IMG/VR virus record: IMGVR_UViG_3300026120_000001
Coordinates: 1 to 61,461 of that record
Source of the DNA: a virus
Lineage: Duplodnaviria > Caudoviricetes
DNA: 61,461 nucleotides
Reading direction: 5' to 3' (one strand)
This document shows, one piece after another, positions 3,603 to 34,476 of the stretch (positions within the stretch are counted from its first letter, which is position 1; each line of letters opens with the position of its first letter). The notes under the pieces were generated by a model, which saw nothing but the letters and a program-made list of their open reading frames with translations, did not search any database and was not told the DNA's origin. The translations under genes were made by a program, and so were the position numbers.

Positions 3603-5989
3603 TATTCATCCAAACCCCAAAAATTATAACCAATTCTTGGATCATAAATAGCTGACGTTGCAACTTGTAATGATCTTAGTGTATCCATAAATCTTTGTGA
3701 TGCTATATTTTCACTAAATTGGTCACCATCAAATATTCTAATGGCTGGTTCATTTGTAATCATAATATGTTTTCCAATATCTAGATTAACCAAACTACCA
3801 TAATCTAAAAGACCTATAGATGAGTCCGCAAGTGTTTGTCCAGATATAACTGGAATTATAAGACCTATATCTCTTAAATCAACCGTATCAAACACGTTTA
3901 GAGGTACCGTATAGGTCGAATTCGCAAGGTACACTACCAACCTATCTGATAATGACTTTATTGCCCTTATAAGACCCTTAAAACGTGCTATTTGGTATCT
4001 TGGATGATAATATCCAATATAGTATTCAAAATTCTCTGGAACAGAAGAATAATAAACATAAGATTCATTTCTTTTTGCAGTAAAAACAAAACCGGCTTCT
4101 ATTTCTCCGATATCAGAAGAAGGAAGTGGTTTATAAAATCTTAATGATAATAGAAAAAAAGGATCTCCATCTCTAGTTCTTAATGTATCGTCTGAAGTTT
4201 TATCTGTATAATTCCTACCGTTTGGGTCTATTACACCAATTACAGAAGAATCAATGTTGTATTCAGAACTATTTTCATAAACACTGACTATACCACCAGA
4301 AACACTTTTGATTACTCTATAATCACCGTTGGATAGATATATTGTTTTATTTACATCAGCACTAGATAAATAACTATAATCAATGGTTATTGTTCCAGAA
4401 CCATTATCTGAAAAATCTATTTCCGTTCCATTGATAGCATCATTATAAGTTTCTGCTATTTTAAAATAATTTAAACTAGAATCAATAACAAAATAATCGG
4501 TGTTTGAAGAGATACCTATTGGCATGGTACCAGAATCGTCGTTAAATGTTATTCTATCTCCAGTTTCAAATGGATGAATGTTATATTCAACGATATTAGA
4601 AGATGAATTAAAAGTTACCACCACCGGAGATGTTGATTTAGTATAATTAATAACACCACTAGACTGAGTTAAGGCAAATGGGAGTTTGGCTCCAATACAG
4701 GCTGGTTGTGATGTTACATCTCCAATAGGTAGAGTTGTTGTAAATTGTGTCTGGCTGGAGATCGAATCTATTGTAGCAGAAGAAAAATTATTTGTGTTTG
4801 TATCATAAAAATGAACAATAGAATCTTTATCACTATAACTAAAAACTGGAACCGATGAAATACAATCAGTTCCTGAAATAGTAAGATCAAAAGGTTTAGC
4901 TATTGATATATCATCAAGCCAAATATAAACTTCTGAATTATTTACTTCTTTTTTTACTGGATCAAATCCATTATTTCCAATATCCAAGGTTGCATATATA
5001 GAATAATGTGTCCAATGTTGATCTGGTACACCATCTAAATTTCTTCCATTTGTTAGACCACTTACTAAATTCTCTGAACCAAAAGAACTTGCTGAATAAT
5101 GATCAGTGTAATCTTTATTGGTTTCATTTGCTTCAACATTACCACTTTCTTGAATCAAAGTTACTCCAGCAGTAAGTCGATTCCTAAGCAGCCCAGTTCC
5201 AGACAATCTGGAAAAAGTATAAGTAAATCTTCTAAGATACACACTTTCTGGATTTACAGAAGTTAGCAACTCAGATGGAACATCTGAATTTACTTTATAA
5301 ACATAATAAGGATCATCATAAGTATTTAATCTATAAATACCATTAGCATTAAATATTAAAAGATATTTATTCAATTCACCAAAAGTACACACACTATTAC
5401 TTAATCCGTTGTTTGCAATTAAAGCACATTCTCTCCAAGCAGTAATGGTATAATCATTTGAGATATATATTTTCTTTTTTATAACTAATATTACTTTTCT
5501 TGAATATGAATGAAAAAAGAGCCCATTTATTTTACCTCTTATTTTTCCATTAACTGAAGATTTTTCCTCATCTGATTCTGTGTATGTTGTTATTTCAGTA
5601 GATGAAATTATCTCTGTTATTCTTTCATTCGTTCCATCATCATGTATATAGTAATCTCCAACATCATAATCAGAAAAGGAATCTCCAACAGTAGCAGTTA
5701 TTGTTCTTTCATTACCACTCACCAAACTGGTTGTTGTATAACCAGAAGTTAAAACTGGCAAACTTGCGGATTCAGTAAAAGAAGAATAATCCCCCCATCT
5801 TTTACTACCGGTTCTTCCTTCTAAATAACTTCCATGGTCTCTAAAGTTTTTTAAATCAACAAGACCAGTTTCTGGAACTTCTGTTGCTGGAATATCCCTA
5901 TATATACCAGAAGAGAAATCTTTCTGTTCACGAACAATTTCTCTTTCATCTTGTTGTCTAGTATGTGGAGTAAATGTATTTTCAGACAT
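3602..5989 (-). CDS. tail tubular/nozzle-like virion protein
   Basis: 795 aa, beta-rich, follows adaptor-like gene; N-terminal DFSSGI..D motif and HPFETGDRITF...YFVI...FKIA insert seen in podovirus tail proteins. Confidence 0.6.
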   Translation of the reverse strand: MSENTFTPHTRQQDEREIVREQKDFSSGIYRDIPATEVPETGLVDLKNFRDHGSYLEGRTGSKRWGDYSSFTESASLPVLTSGYTTTSLVSGNERTITATVGDSFSDYDVGDYYIHDDGTNERITEIISSTEITTYTESDEEKSSVNGKIRGKINGLFFHSYSRKVILVIKKKIYISNDYTITAWRECALIANNGLSNSVCTFGELNKYLLIFNANGIYRLNTYDDPYYVYKVNSDVPSELLTSVNPESVYLRRFTYTFSRLSGTGLLRNRLTAGVTLIQESGNVEANETNKDYTDHYSASSFGSENLVSGLTNGRNLDGVPDQHWTHYSIYATLDIGNNGFDPVKKEVNNSEVYIWLDDISIAKPFDLTISGTDCISSVPVFSYSDKDSIVHFYDTNTNNFSSATIDSISSQTQFTTTLPIGDVTSQPACIGAKLPFALTQSSGVINYTKSTSPVVVTFNSSSNIVEYNIHPFETGDRITFNDDSGTMPIGISSNTDYFVIDSSLNYFKIAETYNDAINGTEIDFSDNGSGTITIDYSYLSSADVNKTIYLSNGDYRVIKSVSGGIVSVYENSSEYNIDSSVIGVIDPNGRNYTDKTSDDTLRTRDGDPFFLLSLRFYKPLPSSDIGEIEAGFVFTAKRNESYVYYSSVPENFEYYIGYYHPRYQIARFKGLIRAIKSLSDRLVVYLANSTYTVPLNVFDTVDLRDIGLIIPVISGQTLADSSIGLLDYGSLVNLDIGKHIMITNEPAIRIFDGDQFSENIASQRFMDTLRSLQVATSAIYDPRIGYNFWGLDE

Positions 5990-9913: not shown

Positions 9914-11989
9914 CTAACTTTGTGTTATTTGTTGGTTACTTTGTTCTAAATCAGCTGCTGGATTGCCCGGTGGGTTCTGTCCCGGTTGTTGCCCACCCTG
10001 CTGTTGAACCGCAGCCATCTGGGGAGACATCATTTGTTGCATACCCATCTGGATTTGCAACTGTTGATACTTATTATTTAAAATATCTGTTTTAGCTCTT
10101 TCTTTAGCCATATCCAATTCAAGTGTTGCGTTTTCTTCTCGTCTTGAGCGCTCAGATGATGAACCATCCAAGGTTCTCATCACATTTTTAACAGCTTCAG
10201 CTCTAGTTATTGGATTTTCACCACCAATTACTCTAAGTAATTCTGTGTTAATTGATCTTTCAACCGCTCTCATTGTTGTACTCATTGGGGATTTATCAAC
10301 AACAACTTTAGCCCTATCAAGAAGAGTAATATCATTCAATATTATTTCACCTTCAGGTGTCATGATGGGTTTGTTGATTTCAACTATCTTATTTTCAGAA
10401 GGAATCACAAACTCTCTATAAACATCTCCATAAAGTTGTTTTGCGGCAATCAAATAGGCTTCTCCTTTTTGATTCCAATAAAACTCAAGAGATTTAATAA
10501 TAGAAGCCTGATTAATTTCAGATTGCAGTTGTTTTCTAGCAAAAAGAATACCAGATTCATCAGAACTCTGTGTTCTAGCATCTGAAGCAGCAGAGTGTTT
10601 GCTAATCATATCGGTCATGTCTACCATACGATTTAGCATATTTATAATGCCATAATCCATCTGTGTTCTTGGTAGCTCTTGAATATAATTTCTACCAGAT
10701 GCAAGTCTACCCGGACCAGACCAATCGGTGTATGATGGGTTGTTGAAATTCTCTCTCATTCGTTCCATACGAACTGGATCATTATCAACAATCTCTGGAT
10801 CTATTAATTTTCCACCATTAGCAGAAGATGATATCATGTGATCTACAAGAGACTCTCTTTTATTATATGTCTGTTGTAGACTTCTAAGAAGTTCCGGGAT
10901 ACCAGAATTTTCACCATTAATTCTGCACGAAGACCAATGAAAAAATGGCAATCTACCAAGTTGTAGATATCCACGTTTATCTTGTAATGGTTTTGTTTTT
11001 GAAATCTCTGGACAAATAGTTGTTACATAATAGATGTTTTCATATATTTCTCTTTCTATAACATCTTCATCTAAATTAACACCATTAAATTCAGCCCATT
11101 GTTTCAAAAATTCATCATCACCATCAGGTATGATCGACCCATCATTTACATTAACTCGTATTTTATTCTTTTCTTTTTCCATGTGGTGATATTCAATCAC
11201 TCTGTATAAATCACCATATGAAGTGTCTTGTTCAAATCTAATAAGCCCTTTGTCTGTAGCTCCCTCCTCATATTCAGAGGCAACTTGAGCTTGAAGTCTA
11301 ATCATGGCTTTGATTTGAGAATCATCAATTCCATATTTTTTTGATATTTCAGAAGGGGTTAGATAAGAGGTTTTCCAAAGACGTTTGAGATCTCTAGAAT
11401 CATAGGATTTCCAGTTGGGATCTAAAACATAATGACCGGGGAGGAGTGTTCTAAAACCAATATTACCAAGGGGTGAGTATCGATCACTAACAAACATCTC
11501 TTCTACGCCTTGATAAACAAGGCCGTGTCTTGTTAATTCCATGTAGGACGCTTCCCAATCCATCAATTCTTTGTCACTAAGAAGCATCCGTTTTAGTATT
11601 TTTGCGAGTTCGTCAAATCGTGGATCTATTGATTCATATCCAATATCAAACCAAGATTTTATTATAGAACCTTGAAGTCCATCAACTTTACCTCTAACTA
11701 TATTTGCTTGAAATGGATTTCGTCCCTGTTCTTTTAATATACTTAAAGCCTCAGAATCCCATTGACCATTTCTAAATCCGGTGTATAATCTCCAATCGGC
11801 TTCTTCGTTTAACCTTTCGTCATATCTTTCAGCTAAAACTTTATCAAATTCGGCCTCTAACAAAGAGACCTTTGCTGAAGGTGTTTCAACAAAAGGCATA
11901 CTGTCTTTGTCAAATCTGTCTTTTTTATTGGGTTTACCAATCCTATTAATTAGATTAGATAAATCCCCAAGTCCCCAAGATTCAGCCAT
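9914..11989 (-). CDS. portal protein (P22-like)
   Basis: 691 aa; YTG...GQW.......L..QGR.P...N motif, Gln-rich C-terminus, downstream of terminase. Confidence 0.85.
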   Translation of the reverse strand: MAESWGLGDLSNLINRIGKPNKKDRFDKDSMPFVETPSAKVSLLEAEFDKVLAERYDERLNEEADWRLYTGFRNGQWDSEALSILKEQGRNPFQANIVRGKVDGLQGSIIKSWFDIGYESIDPRFDELAKILKRMLLSDKELMDWEASYMELTRHGLVYQGVEEMFVSDRYSPLGNIGFRTLLPGHYVLDPNWKSYDSRDLKRLWKTSYLTPSEISKKYGIDDSQIKAMIRLQAQVASEYEEGATDKGLIRFEQDTSYGDLYRVIEYHHMEKEKNKIRVNVNDGSIIPDGDDEFLKQWAEFNGVNLDEDVIEREIYENIYYVTTICPEISKTKPLQDKRGYLQLGRLPFFHWSSCRINGENSGIPELLRSLQQTYNKRESLVDHMISSSANGGKLIDPEIVDNDPVRMERMRENFNNPSYTDWSGPGRLASGRNYIQELPRTQMDYGIINMLNRMVDMTDMISKHSAASDARTQSSDESGILFARKQLQSEINQASIIKSLEFYWNQKGEAYLIAAKQLYGDVYREFVIPSENKIVEINKPIMTPEGEIILNDITLLDRAKVVVDKSPMSTTMRAVERSINTELLRVIGGENPITRAEAVKNVMRTLDGSSSERSRREENATLELDMAKERAKTDILNNKYQQLQIQMGMQQMMSPQMAAVQQQGGQQPGQNPPGNPAADLEQSNQQITQS

Positions 11990-12271: not shown

Positions 12272-14266
12272 TTATAATGTCATCCAATTAAGATTGGTAG
12301 TTGGTTTTTTAATAACACCATTAGAATAACTAGTATTAAATGGAGATGTTTCTATACTTCTTTTTTTATCTCTAAGAAAAGAAACCGCGTTGGCTAAAGA
12401 ATAGCACAAACCAAAATCAACATGTTGGACATTTTTAGATTTATCCATTTTCCAGTTACCCAATTGTTTTATAGAAACCCCGCATTTTTCATTTATCGAT
12501 ATATTTCTATTTGTAATCTGAAGATTCAATGTTTCTATGGCAGACAATTCGTCATATTTATAGTTTTCAAAAACACTGATTCCAAATTTTCTAAATTTCC
12601 AGTCCAAAGAATCACCGCTTTTGCTGAACATCTTGTTGTTGCCTAGTATCTTATTAAATGGATATCTTTCTCTTATGTGTGCTGCTATATACATCAGAGC
12701 ATCATCTCCACAATATTCATCGTATAGATATGCTTTATAACCATCCCAAGAAACGTATGATATAGAGAAAAACAAATCGGGAGATACGTGGATAGAACAA
12801 TACTTTTCAGATCCAGCGTAAGCCACATGTGATCTTATTATATTTTTATCCAGTGGATCAAAATCTTTAATCACAACTCTTTCTGGTTCTTTGTTGTAAA
12901 AACAAAGCATCAGAGCATCGGCTCTATCTGGAGATCCACCAAAATTCTTTTTAAAATCAGACTTGGGTTGAATCATTATTTTGCCAGTATTTGATGGTTT
13001 CCACGTTCTAGCTGCTAGCTCTTCTTTTAGCTTTTCGTCTTCTGGTAGAGATATAACAGGAAGCATATTTCTAAAGTATCCCCACATCGAGCTTGCTTCA
13101 TTGTGATATGTATCATTACCAGACCCACCAAAATTACAAGGTATTGGTTCTATATTATTCTGTCTGTCTAAAGCCAATATGTCAAAAACACCACCACCAA
13201 CACCAACATCATCAACTTTAATTCTAATCTTTCCTTGATATTCTGTGGTTTCTCTTATCTCTAATACTGTAGATATAACCAAATTAGCAGTATCTGGAAT
13301 GCTACTTTTCGACAATGTTTTTGCTGGATAAACTTTATTACCATGTCTCCAATAAACAACAGTTAAATCGTCTCCAAAACGAGCAACGTCTACACCGATC
13401 TCAATCTCTCCCATTGGTGTAACGTCTCTCAACATAGATTGATTAACGTCGTGTAAAGACAAGAAGGAATCTGCATTTTCCGGTGGAAATTCACCAAGGA
13501 TATTAATCAAATAAAGAGGATGATCAATACCATATTTTCGTTTATAATAATGAACTTGTTCTTTATCAACAAACGGAGAATCAACGCTTGAATATGTATT
13601 TGAATCCCATCTGTTTCTGTCTTTGTTAAATGTATCAAAGAAGAAACCAGTTACTTTTGTTGGGTTTGAAATCAGTCCAATTTTATTGTTTTCCCCACTT
13701 GTCAGTGTTGCATCCAAAGTATCTAAAATTTCATCTTCTATACCAGAAGCCTCATCAGCAATGATCATTAAATTTGGAGCATGTATACCAGACATACTTT
13801 CTTTGTCTTTTGCTGTTCTTGGCTCAGCAAAACAACCATTTCTATTTTCTCTTAACGATATTCTTTCTTGTCCAAGTTCAAACAAATCGGCATATTTTGG
13901 TCCAACTAAACTTCGATCAAACCACATTAAAATTTCATTCCACAACGCGGTTTTAAGTGTTTTGAATGATGGTGCAGTACACTCAAATTTTGTTGAGTCT
14001 GGATATATACACAACCAATATACACAAAGAAAAGCAACAGCCGCCGTTTTACCAATACCACGACCAGATTTCCTTGATACTCTACGATTCTTAGTCATAG
14101 ATATTAGGAAATCTTCCTGTTGATTAGATAGATTTAATTTCCCACCGTTACGAACAGATTCTTTATGGAAAATAACATCATGAACAAATTCCACAATGTT
14201 ATCTCTATAATATCTAATCATGTCTGGTGAGAACATGTCTGCATATTTTGGTTTGTTTCTACTCAT
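12272..14266 (-). CDS. terL: terminase large subunit
   Basis: Walker A SGRGIGKT, Walker B IIADEA, ISNP coupling motif, nuclease GVDVARFGDD and SPDRADA; ~200-aa C-terminal extension. Confidence 0.95.
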   Translation of the reverse strand: MSRNKPKYADMFSPDMIRYYRDNIVEFVHDVIFHKESVRNGGKLNLSNQQEDFLISMTKNRRVSRKSGRGIGKTAAVAFLCVYWLCIYPDSTKFECTAPSFKTLKTALWNEILMWFDRSLVGPKYADLFELGQERISLRENRNGCFAEPRTAKDKESMSGIHAPNLMIIADEASGIEDEILDTLDATLTSGENNKIGLISNPTKVTGFFFDTFNKDRNRWDSNTYSSVDSPFVDKEQVHYYKRKYGIDHPLYLINILGEFPPENADSFLSLHDVNQSMLRDVTPMGEIEIGVDVARFGDDLTVVYWRHGNKVYPAKTLSKSSIPDTANLVISTVLEIRETTEYQGKIRIKVDDVGVGGGVFDILALDRQNNIEPIPCNFGGSGNDTYHNEASSMWGYFRNMLPVISLPEDEKLKEELAARTWKPSNTGKIMIQPKSDFKKNFGGSPDRADALMLCFYNKEPERVVIKDFDPLDKNIIRSHVAYAGSEKYCSIHVSPDLFFSISYVSWDGYKAYLYDEYCGDDALMYIAAHIRERYPFNKILGNNKMFSKSGDSLDWKFRKFGISVFENYKYDELSAIETLNLQITNRNISINEKCGVSIKQLGNWKMDKSKNVQHVDFGLCYSLANAVSFLRDKKRSIETSPFNTSYSNGVIKKPTTNLNWMTL

Positions 14267-16149: not shown

Positions 16150-16221
16150 AAGGGGATTTGGGACTCGAACCCAAGTTTGAAGATCCAAAATCTTCCGTCC
16201 TAACCACTGGACTAATCCCCT
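16150..16221 (-). tRNA. tRNA-Gln(TTG)
   Basis: AGGGGAT/ATCCCCT acceptor, GAAGA-TTTTGGA-TCTTC anticodon arm, TTCGAGT T loop; no encoded CCA. Confidence 0.9.
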
Positions 16222-16231
16222 ATTTGTGTAA

Positions 16232-16308
16232 TGGAGGGCAAGGTGGGACTCGAACCCACGACCATCCGGTTAACAGCCGGAAGCTCTAAACCACTGAGCT
16301 ACTCACCC
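16232..16308 (-). tRNA. tRNA-Asn(GTT)
   Basis: TCCGG-CTGTTAA-CCGGA anticodon arm, GTGGG-TTCGAGT-CCCAC T arm, encoded CCA. Confidence 0.9.
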
Positions 16309-16313
16309 TTATA

Positions 16314-16389
16314 TGGAGCCGGTAGAAGGACTCGAACCATCAACAAGATGTTTACAATACATCTGCTCTACCTATTGAGCTATACCGGC
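16314..16389 (-). tRNA. tRNA-Thr(TGT)
   Basis: GCCGGTA/TACCGGC acceptor, GATGT-ATTGTAA-ACATC anticodon arm, encoded CCA. Confidence 0.88.
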
Positions 16390-17758: not shown

Positions 17759-17787
17759 AATATGGTCTATTTTTTCAGAGAAGTCAA
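17759..17787 (-). promoter_or_regulatory. promoter TTGACT-N17-CATATT
   Basis: same TTGACTTCTC motif; -10 ends 6 nt before ATG at 17752. Confidence 0.65.
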
Positions 17788-18170
17788 TTGTTTTTATTGA
17801 AATATTTATTTATTACAGGAAATACTTGGTTAAAAAGATAGATGTAATAATAAGCTAGAGGTTCGCTATTTTGTTTTTCACTGACTATACCAACATTCAA
17901 TGTGACATCCATTGAGGCGTGAATTAACTCGTGTAATACAGTACATAGTAAGTATTGTTTCAACTCTGTCTCGCCGTCATCTCTTACCCAGAGATAACAA
18001 TCTTCCTCCTCTGTATCATAATTAATCAGTGTTATGAAGGCACCGGCTGCATTGTTATTCCAATCAACTTGGTATTTTTTTTCTAAAAATGAGATTATCT
18101 CATCTCTGGTTGAAATAATTAATGTGAACCCATGGTTGTAGATGTCGTCATTAATTTTTTTCTTTATCAT
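17784..18170 (-). CDS. small HExxH (zincin-like) protein
   Basis: TVLHELIHA and downstream EPLAY. Confidence 0.6.
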   Translation of the reverse strand: MIKKKINDDIYNHGFTLIISTRDEIISFLEKKYQVDWNNNAAGAFITLINYDTEEEDCYLWVRDDGETELKQYLLCTVLHELIHASMDVTLNVGIVSEKQNSEPLAYYYIYLFNQVFPVINKYFNKNN

Positions 18171-18198
18171 TTAAAGTCCTTTGAGAAGGTGTATTTAT

Positions 18199-18227
18199 AT
18201 TATGCTATTTTTTTTAAGAGAAGTAAA
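18199..18227 (-). promoter_or_regulatory. promoter TTTACT-N17-CATAAT heading the leftward arm
   Basis: TTTACTTCTCTTAAAAAAAATAGCATAAT on minus strand. Confidence 0.6.
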
Positions 18228-18241
18228 TCCCTATATATGTT

Positions 18242-18263
18242 TATATATATATATATATATATA
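18242..18263. repeat. (TA)11 microsatellite in the divergent intergenic region
   Basis: read directly from sequence. Confidence 0.95.
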
Positions 18264-18596
18264 TTAGGTTATCCTACTGTTTGATTAAATATAAATATAC
18301 AGAGGGTTTAAGGAAGGGGTGTGGGGAAACCATTAAGGGGGTATGATGAATTGTTTGAGAAGTGTTGTGTTTTGTATTTGGGTGTTGAACTAGGTAGTCT
18401 TTCTCCTCTCTCCACCACAGGCCACCCCCGACGGGGGATACCCCCGGCCCCCCAATATGGATATCTGACTTCCATATCGCTGGCTGAAAACTTTGGTCGT
18501 TTCCCTTGGTGTAGCGTTGATTCACTGTTCTTTAAAATCTGGTCATGACATGTTTTGGTAATTTCCTTTGTTGTGACACACTGTTTAAATTAGTTT

Positions 18597-18821
18597 TTGT
18601 TTCTTTCCCTAAGTGAGGACAACATGATCGGGAAAAAGATGGACAAAGCAATGAGCACTATCGAAATGTCTATTGCTTTAAATATCAGAAGTGAAAAGAA
18701 AGTTTCTATTAAACGGGTATCCTTGAAGGATTCACCGTTAAAAGATTCTTTCTTGAAAAAGAACAAAGGATATAAGGCAAGAAAAGATAATTACTGTAAA
18801 CGCCCTAATTGGGTATTCTAA
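18597..18821 (+). CDS. small basic early protein (start probably 18624)
   Basis: GAGGA before ATG at 18624; first ORF of rightward arm. Confidence 0.45.
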   Translation: MFLSLSEDNMIGKKMDKAMSTIEMSIALNIRSEKKVSIKRVSLKDSPLKDSFLKKNKGYKARKDNYCKRPNWVF

Positions 18822-18907
18822 GGAGAGCACTGTGATTGAAGCTATTGTCGGTTCGTTCCTGTTGTTTTTGGTTGTTTCCATGTGTAACCGTTAAACCCCC
18901 TTAACTG

Positions 18908-18970
18908 GGGCAGTAATGCAGCCTATTAAAATAGACGGTCCAAAGCCCGTGGAAATGCAGATGGATGCTC
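18908..18970 (+). ncRNA. twister ribozyme, type P1
   Basis: GGGCA-G-UAA-UGCA-GC-[CUAU/AUAG]-ACGG-UCCAAAGC-CCGU-GGAAA-UGCA-GAUGGA-UGCUC; P1, P2, P3, P4 and both pseudoknots (UCCA/UGGA, GC/GC) can form. Confidence 0.9.
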
Positions 18971-19383
18971 TTTTTAACAAAGCTGAGTGCAGAGATGTGT
19001 TTAAAATGCTCTCAGACTCATTTTAAGGGGTCATATAGGCCAAAAGAGGGGTAAACCCATGCGATGGTATGGGTAATCTATCTTCTGGGCTTATTGGTAC
19101 CTTAAAATCGTTCTTTGACAATTTGTAATGGACTCATGTTGTAAAAATGGGTCAAGGGCTGGGTAGAGATTGGTTTTAGCAGCTTAAACCACACATCATT
19201 TTATCGTGTTGGTTCTAACACTAAATCCATCTTGAATACCTCAGAGTAGTTCTCATGGGGCAATGCCGGTGTACTATATTTATCAATAACTTAGATAGAG
19301 TGGTGAATCTATCATTTTATTACAAATAAATATACTACATAGTAACACAAATTAATTGATTTACACGTTTTCACATATTGTTT

Positions 19384-19421
19384 GGGGGGTGAAGTGAATC
19401 TAACTTCACCCCTCTTTTTTT
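19384..19421 (+). terminator. intrinsic terminator
   Basis: GGGGGTGAAGT...ACTTCACCCCT stem followed by T7. Confidence 0.7.
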
Positions 19422-19435
19422 CTAAGGGGGTAATT

Positions 19436-19870
19436 ATGAGGGGGAAATATGTTAAAATAACTGAGCTAACAGACAAAAAACGTATCCAACTGCTTAATAA
19501 GTATTCAAAAAGACCCAACGTAAATGTTTCAATTGGTGGTAAAAAACACACCACTATGTCTACCCATTTCATAAACACAACAAAAAAATCTTCTTATGGT
19601 AAATCTGGTTATGTATCAAAATGTGATACCTATGATGTTTGTCTAACATTTACCAGAAAAAAACCTTACTCTGATAACACCAAATTACCCACAACAATAG
19701 CACAAAAACCAATAAGAAACTTGGGTAAAATATCCAAACGTAAAAGAAAAGCACTGGAAAAGAAAACAATATTAGTTGATATAGATAAAGAAACAGAGTT
19801 TCAAAAACGGGTATTGAAAGAAAAAGGGTTTAATTCCCTCATGGAATACCAAAAAGAAAGAACAAAATAA
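19436..19870 (+). CDS. basic hypothetical early protein (start revised to 19436)
   Basis: AAGGGGG RBS before MRGKYVK; the longer start overlaps the terminator. Confidence 0.6.
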   Translation: MRGKYVKITELTDKKRIQLLNKYSKRPNVNVSIGGKKHTTMSTHFINTTKKSSYGKSGYVSKCDTYDVCLTFTRKKPYSDNTKLPTTIAQKPIRNLGKISKRKRKALEKKTILVDIDKETEFQKRVLKEKGFNSLMEYQKERTK

Positions 19871-20692: not shown

Positions 20693-20782
20693 AAAGGTGT
20701 CAACATAACAGACTTATTGGTTGCTATCAATAGTGATAAAACCAAACAATTGGGGTAACAATCTACCAACAAGGAGAGAATA

Positions 20783-21013: not shown

Positions 21014-21037
21014 ACCTTGATTTATTTGGAGATTGAA

Positions 21038-21601
21038 ATGAAAAAACTGTTGAAACGTGCTGAAAATGAAGTGTATCACTATGTAAATGGTAAAAAAGTG
21101 ATGGGTGTTCATGCGGCACTTACTGGATATGCTTCTGGAATCTGTGGCAATGTGTCTAACATATATGGCAATGTGTCTGGTGTATGTGGTAATATGTCCA
21201 GTATCTATGGGAATGTGTCTGACATCTGTGGGGACGTGACGGGTGTTGTTGGTAATGTAACCAATCTCACTGGCAATATGTCTGGTATCTATGGGATTGT
21301 TACTGACATCTGTGGAAGTGTGACTGACATCTGTGGGAGTGTGTCTAACATATATGGCAATGTGTCTAGTGTACGTGGCGATGTGACTGGTGTTGTTGGT
21401 AATGTTACTGACATACGTGGGAATGTATCTGGTGTCATTGGGATTCTGAATAGCATACGTGGCGATGTGAGTGGTGTTGTTGGTAATGTGACGGGTGTGT
21501 GTGGGGATATGTCCGATATCATTGGTAACATTAATGATTGTGAGTTAACAGAAGATGACATAAAGAAGGGTGTCAACATAACAGACTTGTTGGTTGATTG
21601 A
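21038..21601 (+). CDS. heptapeptide-repeat (G-N/D-V-S/T-x-I/V-x) protein, probable beta-solenoid
   Basis: about 19 tandem 21-nt units; GGAG RBS before ATG at 21038. Confidence 0.75.
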   Translation: MKKLLKRAENEVYHYVNGKKVMGVHAALTGYASGICGNVSNIYGNVSGVCGNMSSIYGNVSDICGDVTGVVGNVTNLTGNMSGIYGIVTDICGSVTDICGSVSNIYGNVSSVRGDVTGVVGNVTDIRGNVSGVIGILNSIRGDVSGVVGNVTGVCGDMSDIIGNINDCELTEDDIKKGVNITDLLVD

Positions 21602-22079: not shown

Positions 22080-22138
22080 AAGGTGCTCTTGTAAACAAAA
22101 CAGATGATATGGAACGCATAGTAATAGATTGCACAAAA
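22080..22138 (+). repeat. 59-bp exact direct repeat, copy 1 (copy 2 at 34349-34407)
   Basis: AAGGTGCTCTTGTAAACAAAACAGATGATATGGAACGCATAGTAATAGATTGCACAAAA is identical in both places. Confidence 0.95.
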
Positions 22139-22151
22139 GGAGTGGTGCTAA

Positions 22152-22342: not shown

Positions 22343-22419
22343 GCCCCCGTAGCTCAGTAGGATAGAGCAATGGATTTCTAATCCATGTGTCACAGGTTCG
22401 ACTCCTGTCGGGGGTACCA
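22343..22419 (+). tRNA. tRNA-Arg(TCT)
   Basis: GCCCCCG/CGGGGGT acceptor, ATGGA-TTTCTAA-TCCAT anticodon arm, ACAGG-TTCGACT-CCTGT T arm, encoded CCA. Confidence 0.95.
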
Positions 22420-22632: not shown

Positions 22633-23934
22633 ATGAGTTATTTTAAAATTCGTATGGGAACAGATTTTGAATTCTTTGCAAAAAGCAAAAATGGAGTTGT
22701 CCCCGGAGAAAAGGTTATAACTGAAAATAAATCCGGGATTGTCATCGATGGACTTGCTGTTGAAGTTCAACCAGATGCATCAGATTGTCGTGATTCAATT
22801 AAAACTTCAATCAGAAACAAAATGAAGGAATTGAAAGAATCCAAAATTTTTATTCATGAAAGTTATTCAGCAGATTTTAAAAAAGACTGGGATAATATTC
22901 AAGATGAAAATAAAATTCTTGGGTGCGATCCAGATTATGATGCTTACTCAGGTAAAATGAATGTGTTGAAGATTAAAGATAATGAAACAAAAAGATATGC
23001 TGGTGGTCACATTCATCTTGGGGGAAACCAAACTCGATATGGATCTAGTGCAGTTAGAGCTATGAATGATCATAAGAATTTGATACCCCTACTAGATTTG
23101 GTTGTTGGTATTCCTTCTGTTCTTATGGATAGACAAGATAATAAGTCTAGACGTCTACAATATGGAAAAGCTGGATCTTTTCGCAAGAAACCATATGGTG
23201 TTGAGTATCGAGTATTGTCTAATTTTTGGGTAAGTGACATTCGACTTTTCTATTTGTTTTTTGGTCTTGCTCGCACAGCAGTAAACATACTGTATAATCA
23301 TTATACAAACACCGGAACCCATTTAGACATACTGGGGGAACTGTGGAAAAATATTAATAAGAATGATGTAATCGAAGCGATAAATGAAAATGACTTCAAT
23401 CTGGCTAAAAAGATTTTTGATGAGATTGCACCAATTCTAAATTGTTGGTCATCTATTATTGGAGGAATACACACCTTTCCTCTTGCTGACCACGGGCTGG
23501 CTGGTTTTAAATATGTTTGTATGAATCCTATTGATACAAGCAATATTATTGAAAATTGGATTAATCCAAAACAAAACCATGGTTGGTCTTTACATCTTAA
23601 CGGACTTTCATTGGATGAAGATAAAATTGAAAAAGATTGGAAAAATCTCAAAGTTGGTAAAAATATAATTTCAAATAGTCATATTAAAAATATGTATAAA
23701 CCATCTGGTACTTATTATAGTGTGTTAAACAAAAAACCAGAAACACCACTAATTAATGGTAAATCGGTGTATGGAAATATTAAAACCAGACGGGTTGTGG
23801 TTGATGGTAAAAAAGCACTTGCTCCAGTTACTTTCTTCGATGGACAAAATGCAATTGAAGGATGTTTTGCATTCTGTCATGACATTAAAAAGGAAAAATC
23901 TAATAAAAACAACCATATTTTTATTGTGGAGTGA
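22633..23934 (+). CDS. phiEco32-like COOH-NH2 ligase type 2 (glutamine synthetase fold)
   Basis: GTDFEFF, DGLAVE, GCDPD, AGGHIHLG, RRLQYGKAG.FR.KPYGVEYRVLSNFW. Confidence 0.9.
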   Translation: MSYFKIRMGTDFEFFAKSKNGVVPGEKVITENKSGIVIDGLAVEVQPDASDCRDSIKTSIRNKMKELKESKIFIHESYSADFKKDWDNIQDENKILGCDPDYDAYSGKMNVLKIKDNETKRYAGGHIHLGGNQTRYGSSAVRAMNDHKNLIPLLDLVVGIPSVLMDRQDNKSRRLQYGKAGSFRKKPYGVEYRVLSNFWVSDIRLFYLFFGLARTAVNILYNHYTNTGTHLDILGELWKNINKNDVIEAINENDFNLAKKIFDEIAPILNCWSSIIGGIHTFPLADHGLAGFKYVCMNPIDTSNIIENWINPKQNHGWSLHLNGLSLDEDKIEKDWKNLKVGKNIISNSHIKNMYKPSGTYYSVLNKKPETPLINGKSVYGNIKTRRVVVDGKKALAPVTFFDGQNAIEGCFAFCHDIKKEKSNKNNHIFIVE

Positions 23935-24884
23935 TGATGAATTATATTATATTGGGTAAACATGGGCGACTTTCAATGATGGGTGTATCTCAGTCAATGA
24001 GGACACCCCATATATTATTGAAACGAAAAAAATTTAGGACTGGTAATTTCCGTTGGTTTCGTTTCAATAAACAAAACGGACGTTGGTTGAAACATCTACG
24101 TTTAAATGTTAACCCCACATTTGATAGGCAAGATACTATCATCAGGTGGGGATACTCTGGTGCCATTAATGGCAATCCAAAAATATATCAGGATGCAAGA
24201 GCTATTAATATCTTCTCTAATAAGGCCCGCACAAGGCTTCTATTGGCAGAAAATAGTATACCAGTACCAGAGACACGTCTCAATTCCCCAATGGATTCTT
24301 ACCCCTTTATTGTGCGTCCTATAAGGCATAGTAGAGGACGGAATTTTCATGTGGTTAATAATATATCTGAATACACAAACATATTTGGTTCTCTATTAAT
24401 GAATTCAGACACATATTCATCATCAATTTATCCTAAACAAGAAGAGATTCGTGTTTTTGTGGGACATGGGAAAGTCCTTATGATTAAGGATAAAAATTAT
24501 AATCCAGAACATGGAATAGCTGGAAATAGATCTATAACCAATAATGAATGGAGAGTAATACCAGTAAGAGAATATCGAAGATACAAGACAGCTTGTAATA
24601 TTTCATGTGATGCTGTTCGTGTAGCTGGTGGTGATATGGGGGCAGTGGATGTAATGATTAATAGAGAATCTCCAACCATGAAATTTTGTGTGTGTGAAAT
24701 AAACACCGCTCCAGATATAGCAACCAGTGAATATAGTATTGAAAAACACACACGATATTTTGATTGGTTGTTTTCATCTGAAAGAAATTGGTGGAATTAT
24801 ATTCATCCAGAAACCGGAGAAAATAGACAACACCCCACCCGTGGTTCATCATATTTTTTCAGTAATGAACAATTGGAGGTATGA
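23931..24884 (+). CDS. ATP-grasp peptide ligase (RimK/YheCD-like)
   Basis: IIRWG, NKARTR.LL....IPVP, EIRVFV, GAVDV...CEINTAP. Confidence 0.85.
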   Translation: MMMNYIILGKHGRLSMMGVSQSMRTPHILLKRKKFRTGNFRWFRFNKQNGRWLKHLRLNVNPTFDRQDTIIRWGYSGAINGNPKIYQDARAINIFSNKARTRLLLAENSIPVPETRLNSPMDSYPFIVRPIRHSRGRNFHVVNNISEYTNIFGSLLMNSDTYSSSIYPKQEEIRVFVGHGKVLMIKDKNYNPEHGIAGNRSITNNEWRVIPVREYRRYKTACNISCDAVRVAGGDMGAVDVMINRESPTMKFCVCEINTAPDIATSEYSIEKHTRYFDWLFSSERNWWNYIHPETGENRQHPTRGSSYFFSNEQLEV

Positions 24885-25171
24885 TGTTTTGTTTAAATAA
24901 TTACGTTAATCAGGGGTTGATTGATGATAGACCAAGAACTGAAGAGGCAATTAAAGAAATAAATGACCCATCTTTTAAGACTGGTGATATTGTTGAAGTG
25001 ATAATGACATCACCAACTAAAAATGTGTTACCCTATTCAAAACCAAAAATTGGTAAAATTTTAGAGGTGACGGGTATTGATCATAATGATTTTGCATATT
25101 GCTTGAAAGATGAGGAGAATCATGTCTTATATGTCCCAGCCCACTGTTTAAAAAAGGTGATTAAACAATGA
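24881..25171 (+). CDS. hypothetical protein (SH3-like)
   Basis: FKTGDIVEV...IGKILEV...VPAHCLKKV. Confidence 0.55.
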   Translation: MMFCLNNYVNQGLIDDRPRTEEAIKEINDPSFKTGDIVEVIMTSPTKNVLPYSKPKIGKILEVTGIDHNDFAYCLKDEENHVLYVPAHCLKKVIKQ

Positions 25172-25331
25172 ATAAAGATAAAAGAAGAATAAAACTAGAG
25201 AATTATTTAAGTACATTTGATAACAAAATAAAAAAAGAACAACGTAATTTAGATAAAAAAATATCTAAAGATGATGTTCTTAATATAAAAATTTGTTTGA
25301 ACACTATTAATTCAGTGGATGAATTTTTGGG

Positions 25332-25616
25332 GTGTATATGTTGATATCAATTCCAAACTGTGAATCATCGATTAAACTTACAGAACTTCCAGATAATTAT
25401 ATACTAAAAAAGGGTGGTTCAACAAAGTATGGTGATATATTGTTAAATCGTTTTGGTGTATACGAATTTGTCAACTATTATGTTAATAGGACTGTGAATG
25501 AAGATGGACGCTCTCATGAGTATTTCGTATATACACCAAGTGATGAACTTATAATAATTTCTTTAAATGAAGGAAAAAATCCAGAAATTGAAGTTGAGCC
25601 GACAGAATCTATGTAG
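25332..25616 (+). CDS. hypothetical protein
   Basis: 94-aa ORF in operon. Confidence 0.55.
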   Translation: MYMLISIPNCESSIKLTELPDNYILKKGGSTKYGDILLNRFGVYEFVNYYVNRTVNEDGRSHEYFVYTPSDELIIISLNEGKNPEIEVEPTESM

Positions 25617-25645
25617 TTATAACAATATAAAAAGGTATTAAAAAA

Positions 25646-26014
25646 ATGTATATAGCGGTTTATGGAACACTTAAAAAAGACAATCACAATCACCCACTGA
25701 TTGAAAAGTCTGAGTTTATTGGACACAGTAAAGTGTATGGGTATCAAATGTATTGTATCGGTAATATGACATATGGACATGGATATCCATATATAGTACC
25801 AGAAATAAGTGACAAAGAAATTCCAATTGAAGTATACAAAGTGGATTCAAATACAGCCCAAATGGTTGATTATCTAGAGATTGGTTATTCAAAAGAAACA
25901 GTGATTGTTGATGTTGATGGAAAAAAATACCCAGTATCAATTTATATCGTAAATGAAAAAAATAGTAGATTTAAGATGGACAAGCCAATTGAATCAAACA
26001 CATGGGAAATTTAA
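25646..26014 (+). CDS. gamma-glutamylcyclotransferase (AIG2/GGCT-like)
   Basis: IAVYGTLKK..HNH, GYPY, EVYKV...DYLE. Confidence 0.9.
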   Translation: MYIAVYGTLKKDNHNHPLIEKSEFIGHSKVYGYQMYCIGNMTYGHGYPYIVPEISDKEIPIEVYKVDSNTAQMVDYLEIGYSKETVIVDVDGKKYPVSIYIVNEKNSRFKMDKPIESNTWEI

Positions 26015-26026
26015 GGAGGTTTTATA

Positions 26027-26869
26027 GTGTGTATTATTGCAGCTCTACCTGAAATAAATAATATTAAAGAAGACGTAGACTATAAACATTTGGAATATGC
26101 ATGGGATTCAAACCCACATGGCTCTGGATATAGCTATGTTGAAAATATTGGCAGTGATAATGCAAAGGTTGTTGTACGAAAAGGGTGGTTCCAGTTTAAA
26201 CAATTCATCAAAGCATTTCACAACGATAGATATGATAATCCAGACAGCAAGTTTTTAATACATTTCAGATATGCTACCCGTGGAGGTATTAATAAAAAGA
26301 ATTGTCATCCTTTCTTTGTGATTGAAAACAAGATTTCTATGGTTCACAACGGAACTATAACTGGTATTGGTGACTCAACACAATCTGATTCTTTGGTTTT
26401 TTCAAAGATAATGAAGTCTTTATATGAGGATAATATTCCACTTAATTCAACAGCAGTATCATTTTTAATATCAAAGTACATAGACAAATCCAAGGTTGTT
26501 TTACTTACAGACAAAAATGAATTTATTTTTTATAATAAGAACAAAGGAATCCAAGAAAAAGAAATTTGGTTTTCTAATGATTATTATAAAAAGAAGAGAT
26601 ACAACATAAATGTTTACACTGGAACTTATTGTAATCATTGGGATCATAATGTGGATAATATTTATGACTACTGTTTAACAGATGGTTGTATGAATTATTT
26701 ATATGATAACATAGAACAACAAACTGGATACTGTATTAAATGTATTAATATGAATAAAAGTGCATCCATTTATTGTTTATGTGGAAAAAGACTCAGGAAA
26801 GAAAAAGAGTTTAAAGAAAACATGTGTTTTCAATGCATGTCTGAAAAAACAAGTAGGAGACAACGATGA
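26027..26869 (+). CDS. class II (Ntn) glutamine amidotransferase with Cys-rich C-terminus
   Basis: N-terminal MC, NPHGSG, HFRYATRG, NCHPF, HNG, SDS. Confidence 0.9.
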   Translation: MCIIAALPEINNIKEDVDYKHLEYAWDSNPHGSGYSYVENIGSDNAKVVVRKGWFQFKQFIKAFHNDRYDNPDSKFLIHFRYATRGGINKKNCHPFFVIENKISMVHNGTITGIGDSTQSDSLVFSKIMKSLYEDNIPLNSTAVSFLISKYIDKSKVVLLTDKNEFIFYNKNKGIQEKEIWFSNDYYKKKRYNINVYTGTYCNHWDHNVDNIYDYCLTDGCMNYLYDNIEQQTGYCIKCINMNKSASIYCLCGKRLRKEKEFKENMCFQCMSEKTSRRQR

Positions 26870-28347
26870 TAAAAATAGGTTTGATTAAGTTTTCAAAAAA
26901 TAAATACAAGATCATTCGTTTAGATATACAAGATGGTAAATATTATATTGAGGATGGATACAGACAAGAGACACCACCAGATATTTATTGTAAAACATTT
27001 GTTGTTGGCAATAAATATCTACTTCAAGGAATTGAATGTAGTTATATAGCAAGAAAGATTAATAATGAATATATAGATTATTTAACTGGTATTAAAATAA
27101 ACCAAAGTAAGATAATTAATATAATTCCAAGTAATATCATCAAAGATAGCAATGTTTCATATCTTGGAACTTATGTTTACTATAATTGTTCTAAATGTAA
27201 ATCAATGATGTTGGAGAAAGGTGATTTTTGCCCCTCCTGTTTTGAAAAAAATTCAGAGGTGTGTACTAATTGCGGTGCTCGTTTTATTCCAGAAGGCGAC
27301 CACGATATGGTTGTCAATAATAAAGAACATCATCTATGTGTGGATTGTGTTAAGAAAACAGATGTGTGTGATCACTGTTGTACTAAATTGTGGTCTAAAA
27401 GTTTGGTTCATGTTGATGGAGATTGGGTGTGTGGGAATTGTTTATCTGAAATTGTAGATTTAGATTCGTGTGATTTGTGTGGTAATTTACACCCATCAAA
27501 TAAACTCAGGGGTATCGGTGGTTTAAATATGTGTCCTGTGTGTGAGCATGGATACACAAAGAAACCAACAATAAAAACGATGAATTATTCATTTAAACCA
27601 GAATTTAATACTTTCAAAACAAATGAAAATGACGAATCTATTACTATGGGAATTGAGTTGGAGGTATTAAATAAAAAAACACGGAAACAACATATAATAA
27701 ATTATTTCAATGACATTATTAATAAAAAAGAAAATGTTTTTTATTTTAAGAATGATGCTTCAATTGAAAACAAAGGTAGTGGAATATATGGTGAATCATT
27801 TGAATTGGTTAGTCACCCAGTTACATATAATTGGATTGTTAAAAACAAAAATGTAATTAAATCTATTATGGATTTAAGAAAGCATGGATGTTTGTCTTAT
27901 AGGGCACATACTTGTGGTATGCATGTTCATCTTGGTTCCAACTTTTTCACATCAACTCATCTATATTCTTTTTTGAAATTCATTTATGAAAATGAAGATT
28001 TTACATATATGATTTCAGATAGAGTTGATAGAAAATGGTTTGAAAAATTTTCAACATTAAAACCACCATTTGATTTAAAGCGTGTTGCTGAATCAAAGGT
28101 GAACCCAAGAAATGAAAGAAATAGACACGTCGCTGTTAATATGTCTTCTGGATATACTGTTGAGGTTCGTATTTTCAGAGGCACTCTTAATTATGTTCGA
28201 TTCATGAAGAACATCGAATACTGTATGTCTGTTTATGAATATACTAAGGATGAATGGATTCCAACCGTTGGTGGATATTTGGAATTTATTTCTTCTCGTG
28301 ATTATCCAAACCTTAAAAAGATTTTATCAGAAAAGGGAGTTATTTAA
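26866..28347 (+). CDS. putative amidoligase (COOH-NH2 ligase, Amidoligase_2-like) with N-terminal CxxC array
   Basis: GIELEV, KNDASI, FELVSHP, CGMHVH, RHVAVN, TVEVRIFRGTL; multiple CxxC pairs upstream. Confidence 0.88.
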   Translation: MIKIGLIKFSKNKYKIIRLDIQDGKYYIEDGYRQETPPDIYCKTFVVGNKYLLQGIECSYIARKINNEYIDYLTGIKINQSKIINIIPSNIIKDSNVSYLGTYVYYNCSKCKSMMLEKGDFCPSCFEKNSEVCTNCGARFIPEGDHDMVVNNKEHHLCVDCVKKTDVCDHCCTKLWSKSLVHVDGDWVCGNCLSEIVDLDSCDLCGNLHPSNKLRGIGGLNMCPVCEHGYTKKPTIKTMNYSFKPEFNTFKTNENDESITMGIELEVLNKKTRKQHIINYFNDIINKKENVFYFKNDASIENKGSGIYGESFELVSHPVTYNWIVKNKNVIKSIMDLRKHGCLSYRAHTCGMHVHLGSNFFTSTHLYSFLKFIYENEDFTYMISDRVDRKWFEKFSTLKPPFDLKRVAESKVNPRNERNRHVAVNMSSGYTVEVRIFRGTLNYVRFMKNIEYCMSVYEYTKDEWIPTVGGYLEFISSRDYPNLKKILSEKGVI

Positions 28348-34314: not shown

Positions 34315-34476
34315 ATGAAAATTGTAAAAAGAGATTCGTTTCGTTCGCAAGGTGCTCTTGTAAACAAAACAGATGATATGGAACGCATAGTAATAGATTG
34401 CACAAAAAGAGAATCTATACAATTGATGTCATGGGTCGCCCGGCAGAACACTAAGGAGGCGCAAACACAGCAGTAG
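34315..34476 (+). CDS. 53-aa hypothetical protein (not in ORF track); contains copy 2 of the 59-bp repeat
   Basis: GGGAGGT RBS; MKIVKRDSFRSQGALVNKTDDMERIVIDCTKRESIQLMSW... Confidence 0.65.
   Translation: MKIVKRDSFRSQGALVNKTDDMERIVIDCTKRESIQLMSWVARQNTKEAQTQQ

Follow-up and report, generated by a model that had tools for sequence, protein, structure and literature searches.

The plus strand of the phage genome analysed here was shown to bear, at 18908-18970, all the sequence and fold hallmarks of a type-P1 twister ribozyme. The most likely role that we can propose for it, with a probability of roughly 55%, is that it would split an early transcript into a short mRNA and an RNA of about 506 nt with a 5'-hydroxyl end. 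The window, meaning the whole stretch of DNA that was analysed, has 61,461 bases and is identical to the IMG/VR record IMGVR_UViG_3300026120_000001, which is classed as linear and estimated to be 71% complete; near-identical DNA is present in 9 soil metagenome runs, each of which is recorded as something other than RNA. Transcription of the strand that carries the twister is assumed throughout.

Structure of the ribozyme

The ribozyme and its pairings are as follows, all on the plus strand.

18908-18970: type-P1 twister ribozyme with P1-P4 and pseudoknots T1 and T2; predicted scissile bond U18914/A18915
18908-18912 / 18966-18970: P1, GGGCA/UGCUC, with one G-U pair; G18907-U18971 could lengthen it
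18917-18920 / 18956-18959: P2, UGCA/UGCA
18923-18926 / 18931-18934: P3, CUAU/AUAG, with loop UAAA
18935-18938 / 18947-18950: P4, ACGG/CCGU
18939-18942 / 18962-18965: pseudoknot T1, UCCA/UGGA
18921-18922 / 18945-18946: pseudoknot T2, GC/GC

The scissile bond was predicted from the UAA at 18914-18916. All six pairings listed in the initial annotation (P1-P4 and both pseudoknots) were recovered at the same coordinates when read from the sequence. The nested helices P1, P2 and P4 and the optional P3 occur in type-P1 order in both the covariance model alignment and the minimum free energy fold, and the latter, computed for 18908-18970, consists of exactly P1-P4. Its energy was ordinary (z 0.35, equalled by 127 of 200 shuffles), as expected, because pseudoknots are absent from the energy model. 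T1 and T2, both of which connect loop L4 with the internal loops, were read directly from the sequence; the covariance model is one without pseudoknots.

Like the type-P1 twisters of Rfam family RF03160, the window copy has the helix order P1-P2-P3-P4 with its ends in P1, UAA at the cut, both pseudoknots, a GCC block, an L4 loop of GGUCC-AAGCCCG, an AAA linker and a GA-GG block, with P3 as an optional stem; P3 is present in 78% of twisters according to an excerpt of PMC6154101. Unlike the RF03160 consensus, it has a P3 of only 4 pairs, a G-A mismatch at the innermost P1 position (seen in the covariance model alignment), one A-U pair in place of C-G in T1, and G (A in one strain) at 18952 where the consensus has U. 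Within the core (UAA at the cut, GCC, the GGUCCCAAGCCCG loop, AAA and GAGGG) the departures were limited to three positions, namely C to A at 18942 (C42 of the model), G to U at 18962 (G62 of the model), and U to G at 18952 in the unpaired linker. Because A18942 faces U18962 in T1, the first two of these replace C-G by A-U and turn CCC/GGG into CCA/UGG, so that the change is compensated.

Covariance model searches

RF03160 (twister-P1) aligned model positions 1-68 of 68 to 18910-18968 on the plus strand with a score of 57.0 bits. The E value was 4.5e-12 on 801 bases, 3.5e-10 on the whole window, and 8.2e-14 when the record itself was searched. The gathering score of the family is 67.2 bits, which is a curators' threshold and not a structural feature; the window twister lies about 10 bits under it and is therefore missed by a default Rfam scan. 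At gathering thresholds, Rfam reported four tRNAs in the window and nothing else. All of the structural features examined fit a type-P1 twister, and only the curated score threshold was not reached.

An independent model, R1, was built from 20 twisters of the subgroup described below, with the window copy left out. R1 gave the window copy 55.9 bits (rough E 9e-14), compared with 15.1 bits for the next best match in the window, and with filters off it found no second twister copy there. Rfam gave no match to any other ribozyme family in the window at E ≤ 1, and no clustering of ribozymes within a few kb was found. The covariance model search that the initial annotation had suggested thus returned a significant RF03160 match, though one under the gathering score, and RF03160, R1 and the covariation within the subgroup together support reading it as an intact type-P1 twister. 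A chance resemblance, with no ribozyme present, would agree with the score below the Rfam threshold and with the unremarkable thermodynamic z, but is barely credible in view of the E value on the window, the distance between the R1 score and its next best match, and the compensated change in the pseudoknot.

A twister subgroup with an A-U pair in T1

A search pattern was designed that fixed only UAA, GCC, GGUCCAAAGCCCG and GAUGG and left P1, P2, the P3 region and the outer P4 pair free. It matched 21 contigs of the viral collection (L163-L183) and, in bacteria, 9 copies on 7 genome contigs (L184-L190), mostly Bacillota by their record titles. Most subgroup copies are without P3 and have P2 spelled UGCA/UGCA. 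One bacterial contig (L184) carries three copies within 2.3 kb.

Pairs were counted on 21 aligned copies, with the window included and one duplicate counted once; these come from unrelated contigs and are not orthologues. Standard pairs were formed in 88.3% of cells, versus 24.6-34.2% when the 3' partners were slid by 1-3 columns, and the covariation score was 0.369 versus 0.111 in shuffles, a value reached by none of 500. Both partners had changed in every pair of P2 (four) and of P1 (six), and also in the outer pair of P4. The three T1 pairs were invariant in 21 of 21 rows of the alignment (A3), as fixed by the search pattern; the C before GGUCC was likewise present in every row, though it had been left out of the pattern.

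Rfam was run on 13 of the 21 loci. Twelve sites were matched, with 33.3-52.9 bits, all of them below 67.2, and the pattern site of the remaining locus (L168) had no Rfam match at E ≤ 0.01. The window copy had the highest Rfam score of the subgroup copies tested (57.0 versus 33.3-52.9). The window copy is a member of a recurrent phage-borne twister subgroup with A-U for C-G in T1. Routine annotation misses such twisters in phage genomes, since all 12 matched copies and the window copy score below the gathering threshold.

Open reading frames of at least 50 aa around the subgroup copies were called mechanically. A same-strand ORF ended 19-103 nt upstream of the ribozyme at 17 of 21 loci and at 181 and 630 nt in two others; two had none. 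Downstream, 17 of 21 had a same-strand ORF that started within 83 nt or inside the ribozyme, one had its nearest at 414 nt, and three had none. The subgroup twisters usually occupy short spacers within co-directional blocks of small genes. These positions, some with other ribozymes nearby, fit the published proposal that such elements cut transcripts, as given in excerpts of PMC3088659 and PMC6765202. The window copy shares with the subgroup its position just after a stop codon; it differs in being a single ribozyme followed by a long folded non-coding stretch, with about 470 nt before the next gene versus less than 100 nt in 17 of the 21 other copies. Because of this long gap, the subgroup precedent fits only the upstream half of the model proposed below.

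Other ribozymes were seen at about 0.2-0.8 kb from subgroup twisters. L181 has two twister-sisters at 23-478 on the minus strand (67.5 and 61.0 bits), and L172 has a type-P5 twister at 4567-4622 on the plus strand (56.3 bits). Second type-P1 twisters lie beside the subgroup copies in L173 (4212-4283, minus strand) and L171 (721-771, plus strand).

Genome layout and the region upstream of the ribozyme

The arms of the genome and the elements that precede the ribozyme are listed here.

9914-11989: P22-like portal gene, leftward arm of virion genes
12272-14266: large terminase gene, same arm
16150-16389: three tRNA genes, leftward arm
17784-18170: last supported leftward gene (PHROG 1365), with a homologue in the related contig L002
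Right of 18170: AT-rich divergent stretch, holding a (TA)16 run at 18232-18264
18400-18460: G+C-rich island of C/G runs and small hairpins in AT-rich surroundings (fold z -0.67)
18624-18821, plus strand: ORF65, a small basic ORFan with GAGGA ahead of its ATG; likely upstream cistron of the ribozyme transcript
18832-18894, plus strand: putative 20-codon hydrophobic ORF with AAGGAG 6 nt ahead of its GTG
18896-18910, plus strand: C-run/G-run hairpin (CCCC 18897-18900 / GGGG 18907-18910), directly 5' of the cut
Rightward arm, metabolism and replication: amidoligase, GATase, GGACT, AAA_24 protein, radical-SAM protein, family-B DNA polymerase, primase-helicase, ribonucleotide reductase and dUTPase
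Right side: second leftward block, including a 2,438-residue internal virion protein with a transglycosylase domain

GC skew becomes positive near 18000. Neither an RNA polymerase nor an RNA ligase was seen among the window proteins scanned. An alternative genetic code was rejected; table 11 leaves the long ORFs unbroken, and none of the tRNAs is a suppressor.

Three strain SNPs near 18400-18460 alter the protein in every candidate frame, and the G+C-rich island is therefore probably non-coding. In ORF65, six strain SNPs gave one amino-acid change; one antisense ORF would have two changes, and another antisense ORF would lose its stop codon. The assignment of ORF65 to the plus strand is supported by its ribosome-binding site and by these mostly synonymous SNPs. 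Its coding score was -0.022 bits/codon, which was exceeded by 1.9% of 266 spurious ORFs. It corresponds to predicted protein P0121 in a large collection, in which no distant homologues of it were found. The 20-codon ORF scored -0.279 bits/codon and is too short for scoring.

P1 begins 13 nt past the stop codon of the 20-codon ORF, and the twister is therefore not at the head of the transcript. The initial annotation had placed it at the start of the early arm; this needs correction, since the plus-strand unit begins further left and both ORF65 and the 20-codon ORF precede the ribozyme.

The C-run/G-run hairpin overlaps three bases of the 5' strand of P1. Residues 18885-18914 fold at -7.3 kcal/mol, with this structure accounting for 76% of the ensemble. 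In a 91-nt context (18885-18975, with 23 upstream bases), the nested minimum free energy fold, in which pseudoknots are unmodelled, forms the C-run/G-run hairpin in place of P1 and P2. According to an excerpt of PMC6154101, which bears on this loss of P1, P1 is dispensable for twister cleavage.

The region downstream of the ribozyme

The following features lie between the cut and the next gene, all on the plus strand.

18916-19026: 36-codon ORF (ORF36), with its AUG one base after the predicted cut; probably incidental
18971-19383: gene-poor folded stretch between ribozyme and terminator, with a long hairpin at 19010-19125
19384-19421: intrinsic terminator (hairpin 19384-19414), with a 12-pair stem that has 7 G-C pairs, a 7-nt loop and a T7 run
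19436-19870: first larger gene of the plus-strand arm, 144 aa, no family; coding score 0.118 bits/codon in frame

The RNA from 18915 to 19425 folds at -144.4 kcal/mol (z -4.03), and none of 100 shuffles was as stable; for the hairpin at 19010-19125 the z was -4.80, and none of 200 shuffles reached it. Between 18971 and 19383 there was no ORF with a ribosome-binding site and no Rfam match at E ≤ 1. DNA similar to the downstream stretch was found neither in the annotated phage collection by blastn nor in 182 fetched loci, and comparison of 18171-19435 by blastn and nhmmer with 161 and then 21 fetched loci gave only the ribozyme core and one weak AT-rich match. A possible antiterminator pairing (19042-19055 / 19405-19418, 13 of 14 bases) was rejected; it targets the 3' arm of the terminator, and the local hairpin would out-compete it.

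Cleavage would place the AUG of ORF36 one base past the cut, so that a nearly leaderless mRNA beginning with A and this start codon could be produced. The coding score of ORF36 was 0.058 bits/codon, which only 1.1% of 266 spurious ORFs reached. The part of ORF36 outside the ribozyme scored -0.106 bits/codon, however, and this value was reached or exceeded by 7.9% of the spurious ORFs. Moreover, the AUG arises from the P2 spelling UGCA that is common to most of the subgroup. It is present in 15 of the 21 other copies, where it opens frames of 1, 42, 60, 9, 87, 9, 16, 51, 34, 1, 57, 26, 32, 84 and 9 codons, 6 of which stop within 9; five closely related copies end at different points (26-57 codons), and the conserved core is read in another frame in the window than in the other copies. 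We consider such a nearly leaderless mRNA very unlikely.

The terminator leaves little space before the next gene. The ribosome-binding site of gene 19436, UAAGGGGGU at 19423-19431, lies 2 nt past the T run, which leaves no room for a separate promoter, and a scan of 18400-19700 for sigma-70-type sites found no promoter-like site on either strand. These observations would suit a reading in which the 450 nt are a leader of the replication arm and not a separate RNA, and in which the terminator is an attenuator; cleavage would then set the 5' end of a read-through mRNA and so affect stability or translation from gene 19436 onward. A precedent is the hammerhead that lies 13 nt before the first early gene of the haloviruses HF1 and HF2, where the mapped 5' end of the transcript is within three nt of the cut (excerpts of PMC3088659). 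The terminator looks strong (12 pairs, 7 G-C, T7), however, read-through is itself supposed, and the promoter scan was one for sigma-70-type sites only. On balance, a leader is possible but doubtful.

Strain variants and the search for relatives

Strain variants were taken from DNA contigs of four soil runs that cover the region, three of which miss 19218-19380. Across these four strain-level runs, 18741-19615 contained one SNP (18952) and one T-run indel, and 18300-18740 contained 10 variable positions. Position 18952, in the unpaired linker, was the only ribozyme position that varied, being changed from G to A in one run; one strain contig has one T fewer at 19415. Within ORF65, seven SNP events fell on six positions in the 55 nt from 18686 to 18740, and the next 875 nt held the one SNP and the one indel. 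The cluster at 18686-18740 may mark a recombination patch or a spot of locally high variability, and the scarcity of SNPs downstream may likewise come from recombination and not from constraint.

Relatives of the locus were sought in several ways. Searches of the viral collection found no relatives by single neighbouring proteins and no match to an exact 30-mer of the ribozyme; an alignment of the ligase, including a homologue at 50%, led to no viral locus, and blastn against the annotated phage collection gave no match. The terminase had one relative in the viral collection at 74% identity, and a 38-sequence alignment added two others, with 52% and 47%. These three contigs (L002, L003 and L004) hold no twister and end before the site; their sequence runs out 2.5-4.4 kb upstream of their terminase gene, in the direction in which the divergent region would be expected. 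The divergent region with its (TA)16 run may mark an end of the genome or a point at which assemblies repeatedly break. Two metagenome scans for an orthologous locus yielded nothing close, the best being L083 at 35%, and this distant relative had no twister within 10 kb of its terminase gene. Thus, no orthologous ribozyme locus was recovered from the viral collection or from the metagenome scans.

Only the ribozyme core is common to the window and the 21 other contigs, with no flank and no protein shared. Together with the distant relative in which no twister was found, and with the company of other ribozymes that the subgroup keeps in other phages, this would be expected of a passenger, that is, a mobile or shuffled RNA module, cutting or no longer cutting, that brings the phage no benefit. 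The window copy, however, is intact, has a compensated T1, scores highest with Rfam among the subgroup copies tested, and shows a single change, in the unpaired linker, across four strain-level runs. We therefore regard a passenger as unlikely.

Proposed processing of the transcript

In the reading that we prefer, the ribozyme would be part of a transcript that runs rightward from the AT-rich divergent region (near 18170-18300) to the terminator (19384-19421). Once transcribed, it would cut itself between U18914 and A18915, as the chemistry of the family predicts, leaving a 2',3'-cyclic phosphate upstream and a 5'-hydroxyl downstream; the chemistry of twister cleavage is reviewed in PMC6154101 and PMC6765202. 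The upstream product would be a short mRNA with ORF65 and the 20-codon ORF, and its new 3' end would lie 4 nt past the C-run/G-run hairpin. On the other side of the cut, about 506 nt of highly folded and mostly non-coding RNA (18915 to about 19420) would be released, closed at the 3' end by the terminator hairpin. Stability and fate would then be set separately for each product, and the downstream one is a candidate stable phage RNA. Such a 5'-hydroxyl RNA would fit the terminator, the strong predicted folding, and the lack of an ORF with a ribosome-binding site. Excerpts of PMC6765202 and PMC3088659 contain the proposal that hammerheads and twisters of bacteria process polycistronic and 3'-UTR RNA. 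Formation of a circular RNA was considered and set aside; the window has a single ribozyme, and the protein scan turned up no RNA ligase.

The sequence ACCCCCUUA at 18895-18903, just 5' of the cut, occurs once on the plus strand of the window and is the exact complement of UAAGGGGGU. It can also pair with the G run in the 5' arm of the terminator. A switch can be imagined from these complements, in which ACCCCCUUA would mask UAAGGGGGU, or hinder the terminator in cis, until cleavage detaches it. The ribozyme would then decide both termination in the leader and translation of gene 19436, and the C-run/G-run hairpin could set the rate of cleavage. The predicted duplex of ACCCCCUUA with UAAGGGGGU has -18.9 kcal/mol, and 2% of shuffles were as good. 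The G+C-rich stretch near 18421 pairs better with UAAGGGGGU (-25.1 kcal/mol), and by our estimate perfect complementarity over ten bases is roughly to be expected by chance within 1.3 kb. We judge the switch highly improbable.

Comparison with known systems

Roth et al. in 2014 are said to have described the twister class. The window twister is an ordinary new example of the known type-P1 class, and the role given to it here is a proposal.

Felletti et al. in 2017 reportedly had twisters acting in bacterial 3' untranslated regions, using engineered reporter constructs. The window ribozyme resembles these in its position 13 nt past a stop codon, where the predicted cut would define the 3' end of the upstream message; unlike the engineered reporters, it is known from sequence alone.

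Among phage ribozymes, hammerheads have been reported to flank genes in polycistronic transcripts of prophages, and one precedes the early operon of HF1/HF2 (Perreault et al. 2011, excerpts of PMC3088659). Their proposed role in the same excerpts is to cut long phage transcripts into shorter units. The window twister resembles them as a small self-cleaving RNA in a phage transcription unit, between or ahead of varying small genes. It differs in belonging to another ribozyme class, in being a single copy and not one of a flanking pair or cluster, and in being followed by a long non-coding stretch and not by a gene. Excerpts of PMC6765202 note that twisters occur near phage genes and that what self-cleaving ribozymes do in bacteria is still largely elusive. 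Our literature search turned up no article that addresses the function of twisters in phages.

The window offers a clean layout around a single ribozyme in a lytic-looking soil phage, with two tiny ORFs, the twister, a folded non-coding stretch of about 450 nt, and a terminator. In this layout the effect of cleavage on two separate RNA products is measurable.

Other features of the genome

A cluster of genes of the peptide-ligase type occupies 22633-28347, beside a tRNA-Arg(TCT) gene at 22343-22419. Its members are a COOH-NH2 ligase (PF14395 by precomputed matches), an S6-modification-like ligase, a GGACT cyclotransferase, a class-II GATase-like protein, and an amidoligase with a zinc ribbon.

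The rightward arm also contains repeats. A 63-nt direct repeat is present in two copies that are 98% identical (22080-22142 and 34349-34411), each of which ends in a sequence resembling a ribosome-binding site (AAAGGAG or AAAAGAG); a promoter or leader present twice is one possible reading. Inside the ORF at 21017-21601, positions 21119-21517 form a tandem array with 21-nt periodicity and about 10 overlapping units of 147 nt that are 61-71% identical. The predicted product of the array is a protein of heptad repeats. On both sides of the array lies a 31-nt repeat whose copies are 94% identical (20693-20723 and 21566-21596).

Two homologues of the large terminase, P0007 and P0013, have 1,081 and 1,011 residues and contain the intein/homing-endonuclease Pfam domains PF14528, PF14890 and PF05204. 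These domain matches suggest that inteins occur in the large-terminase lineage.
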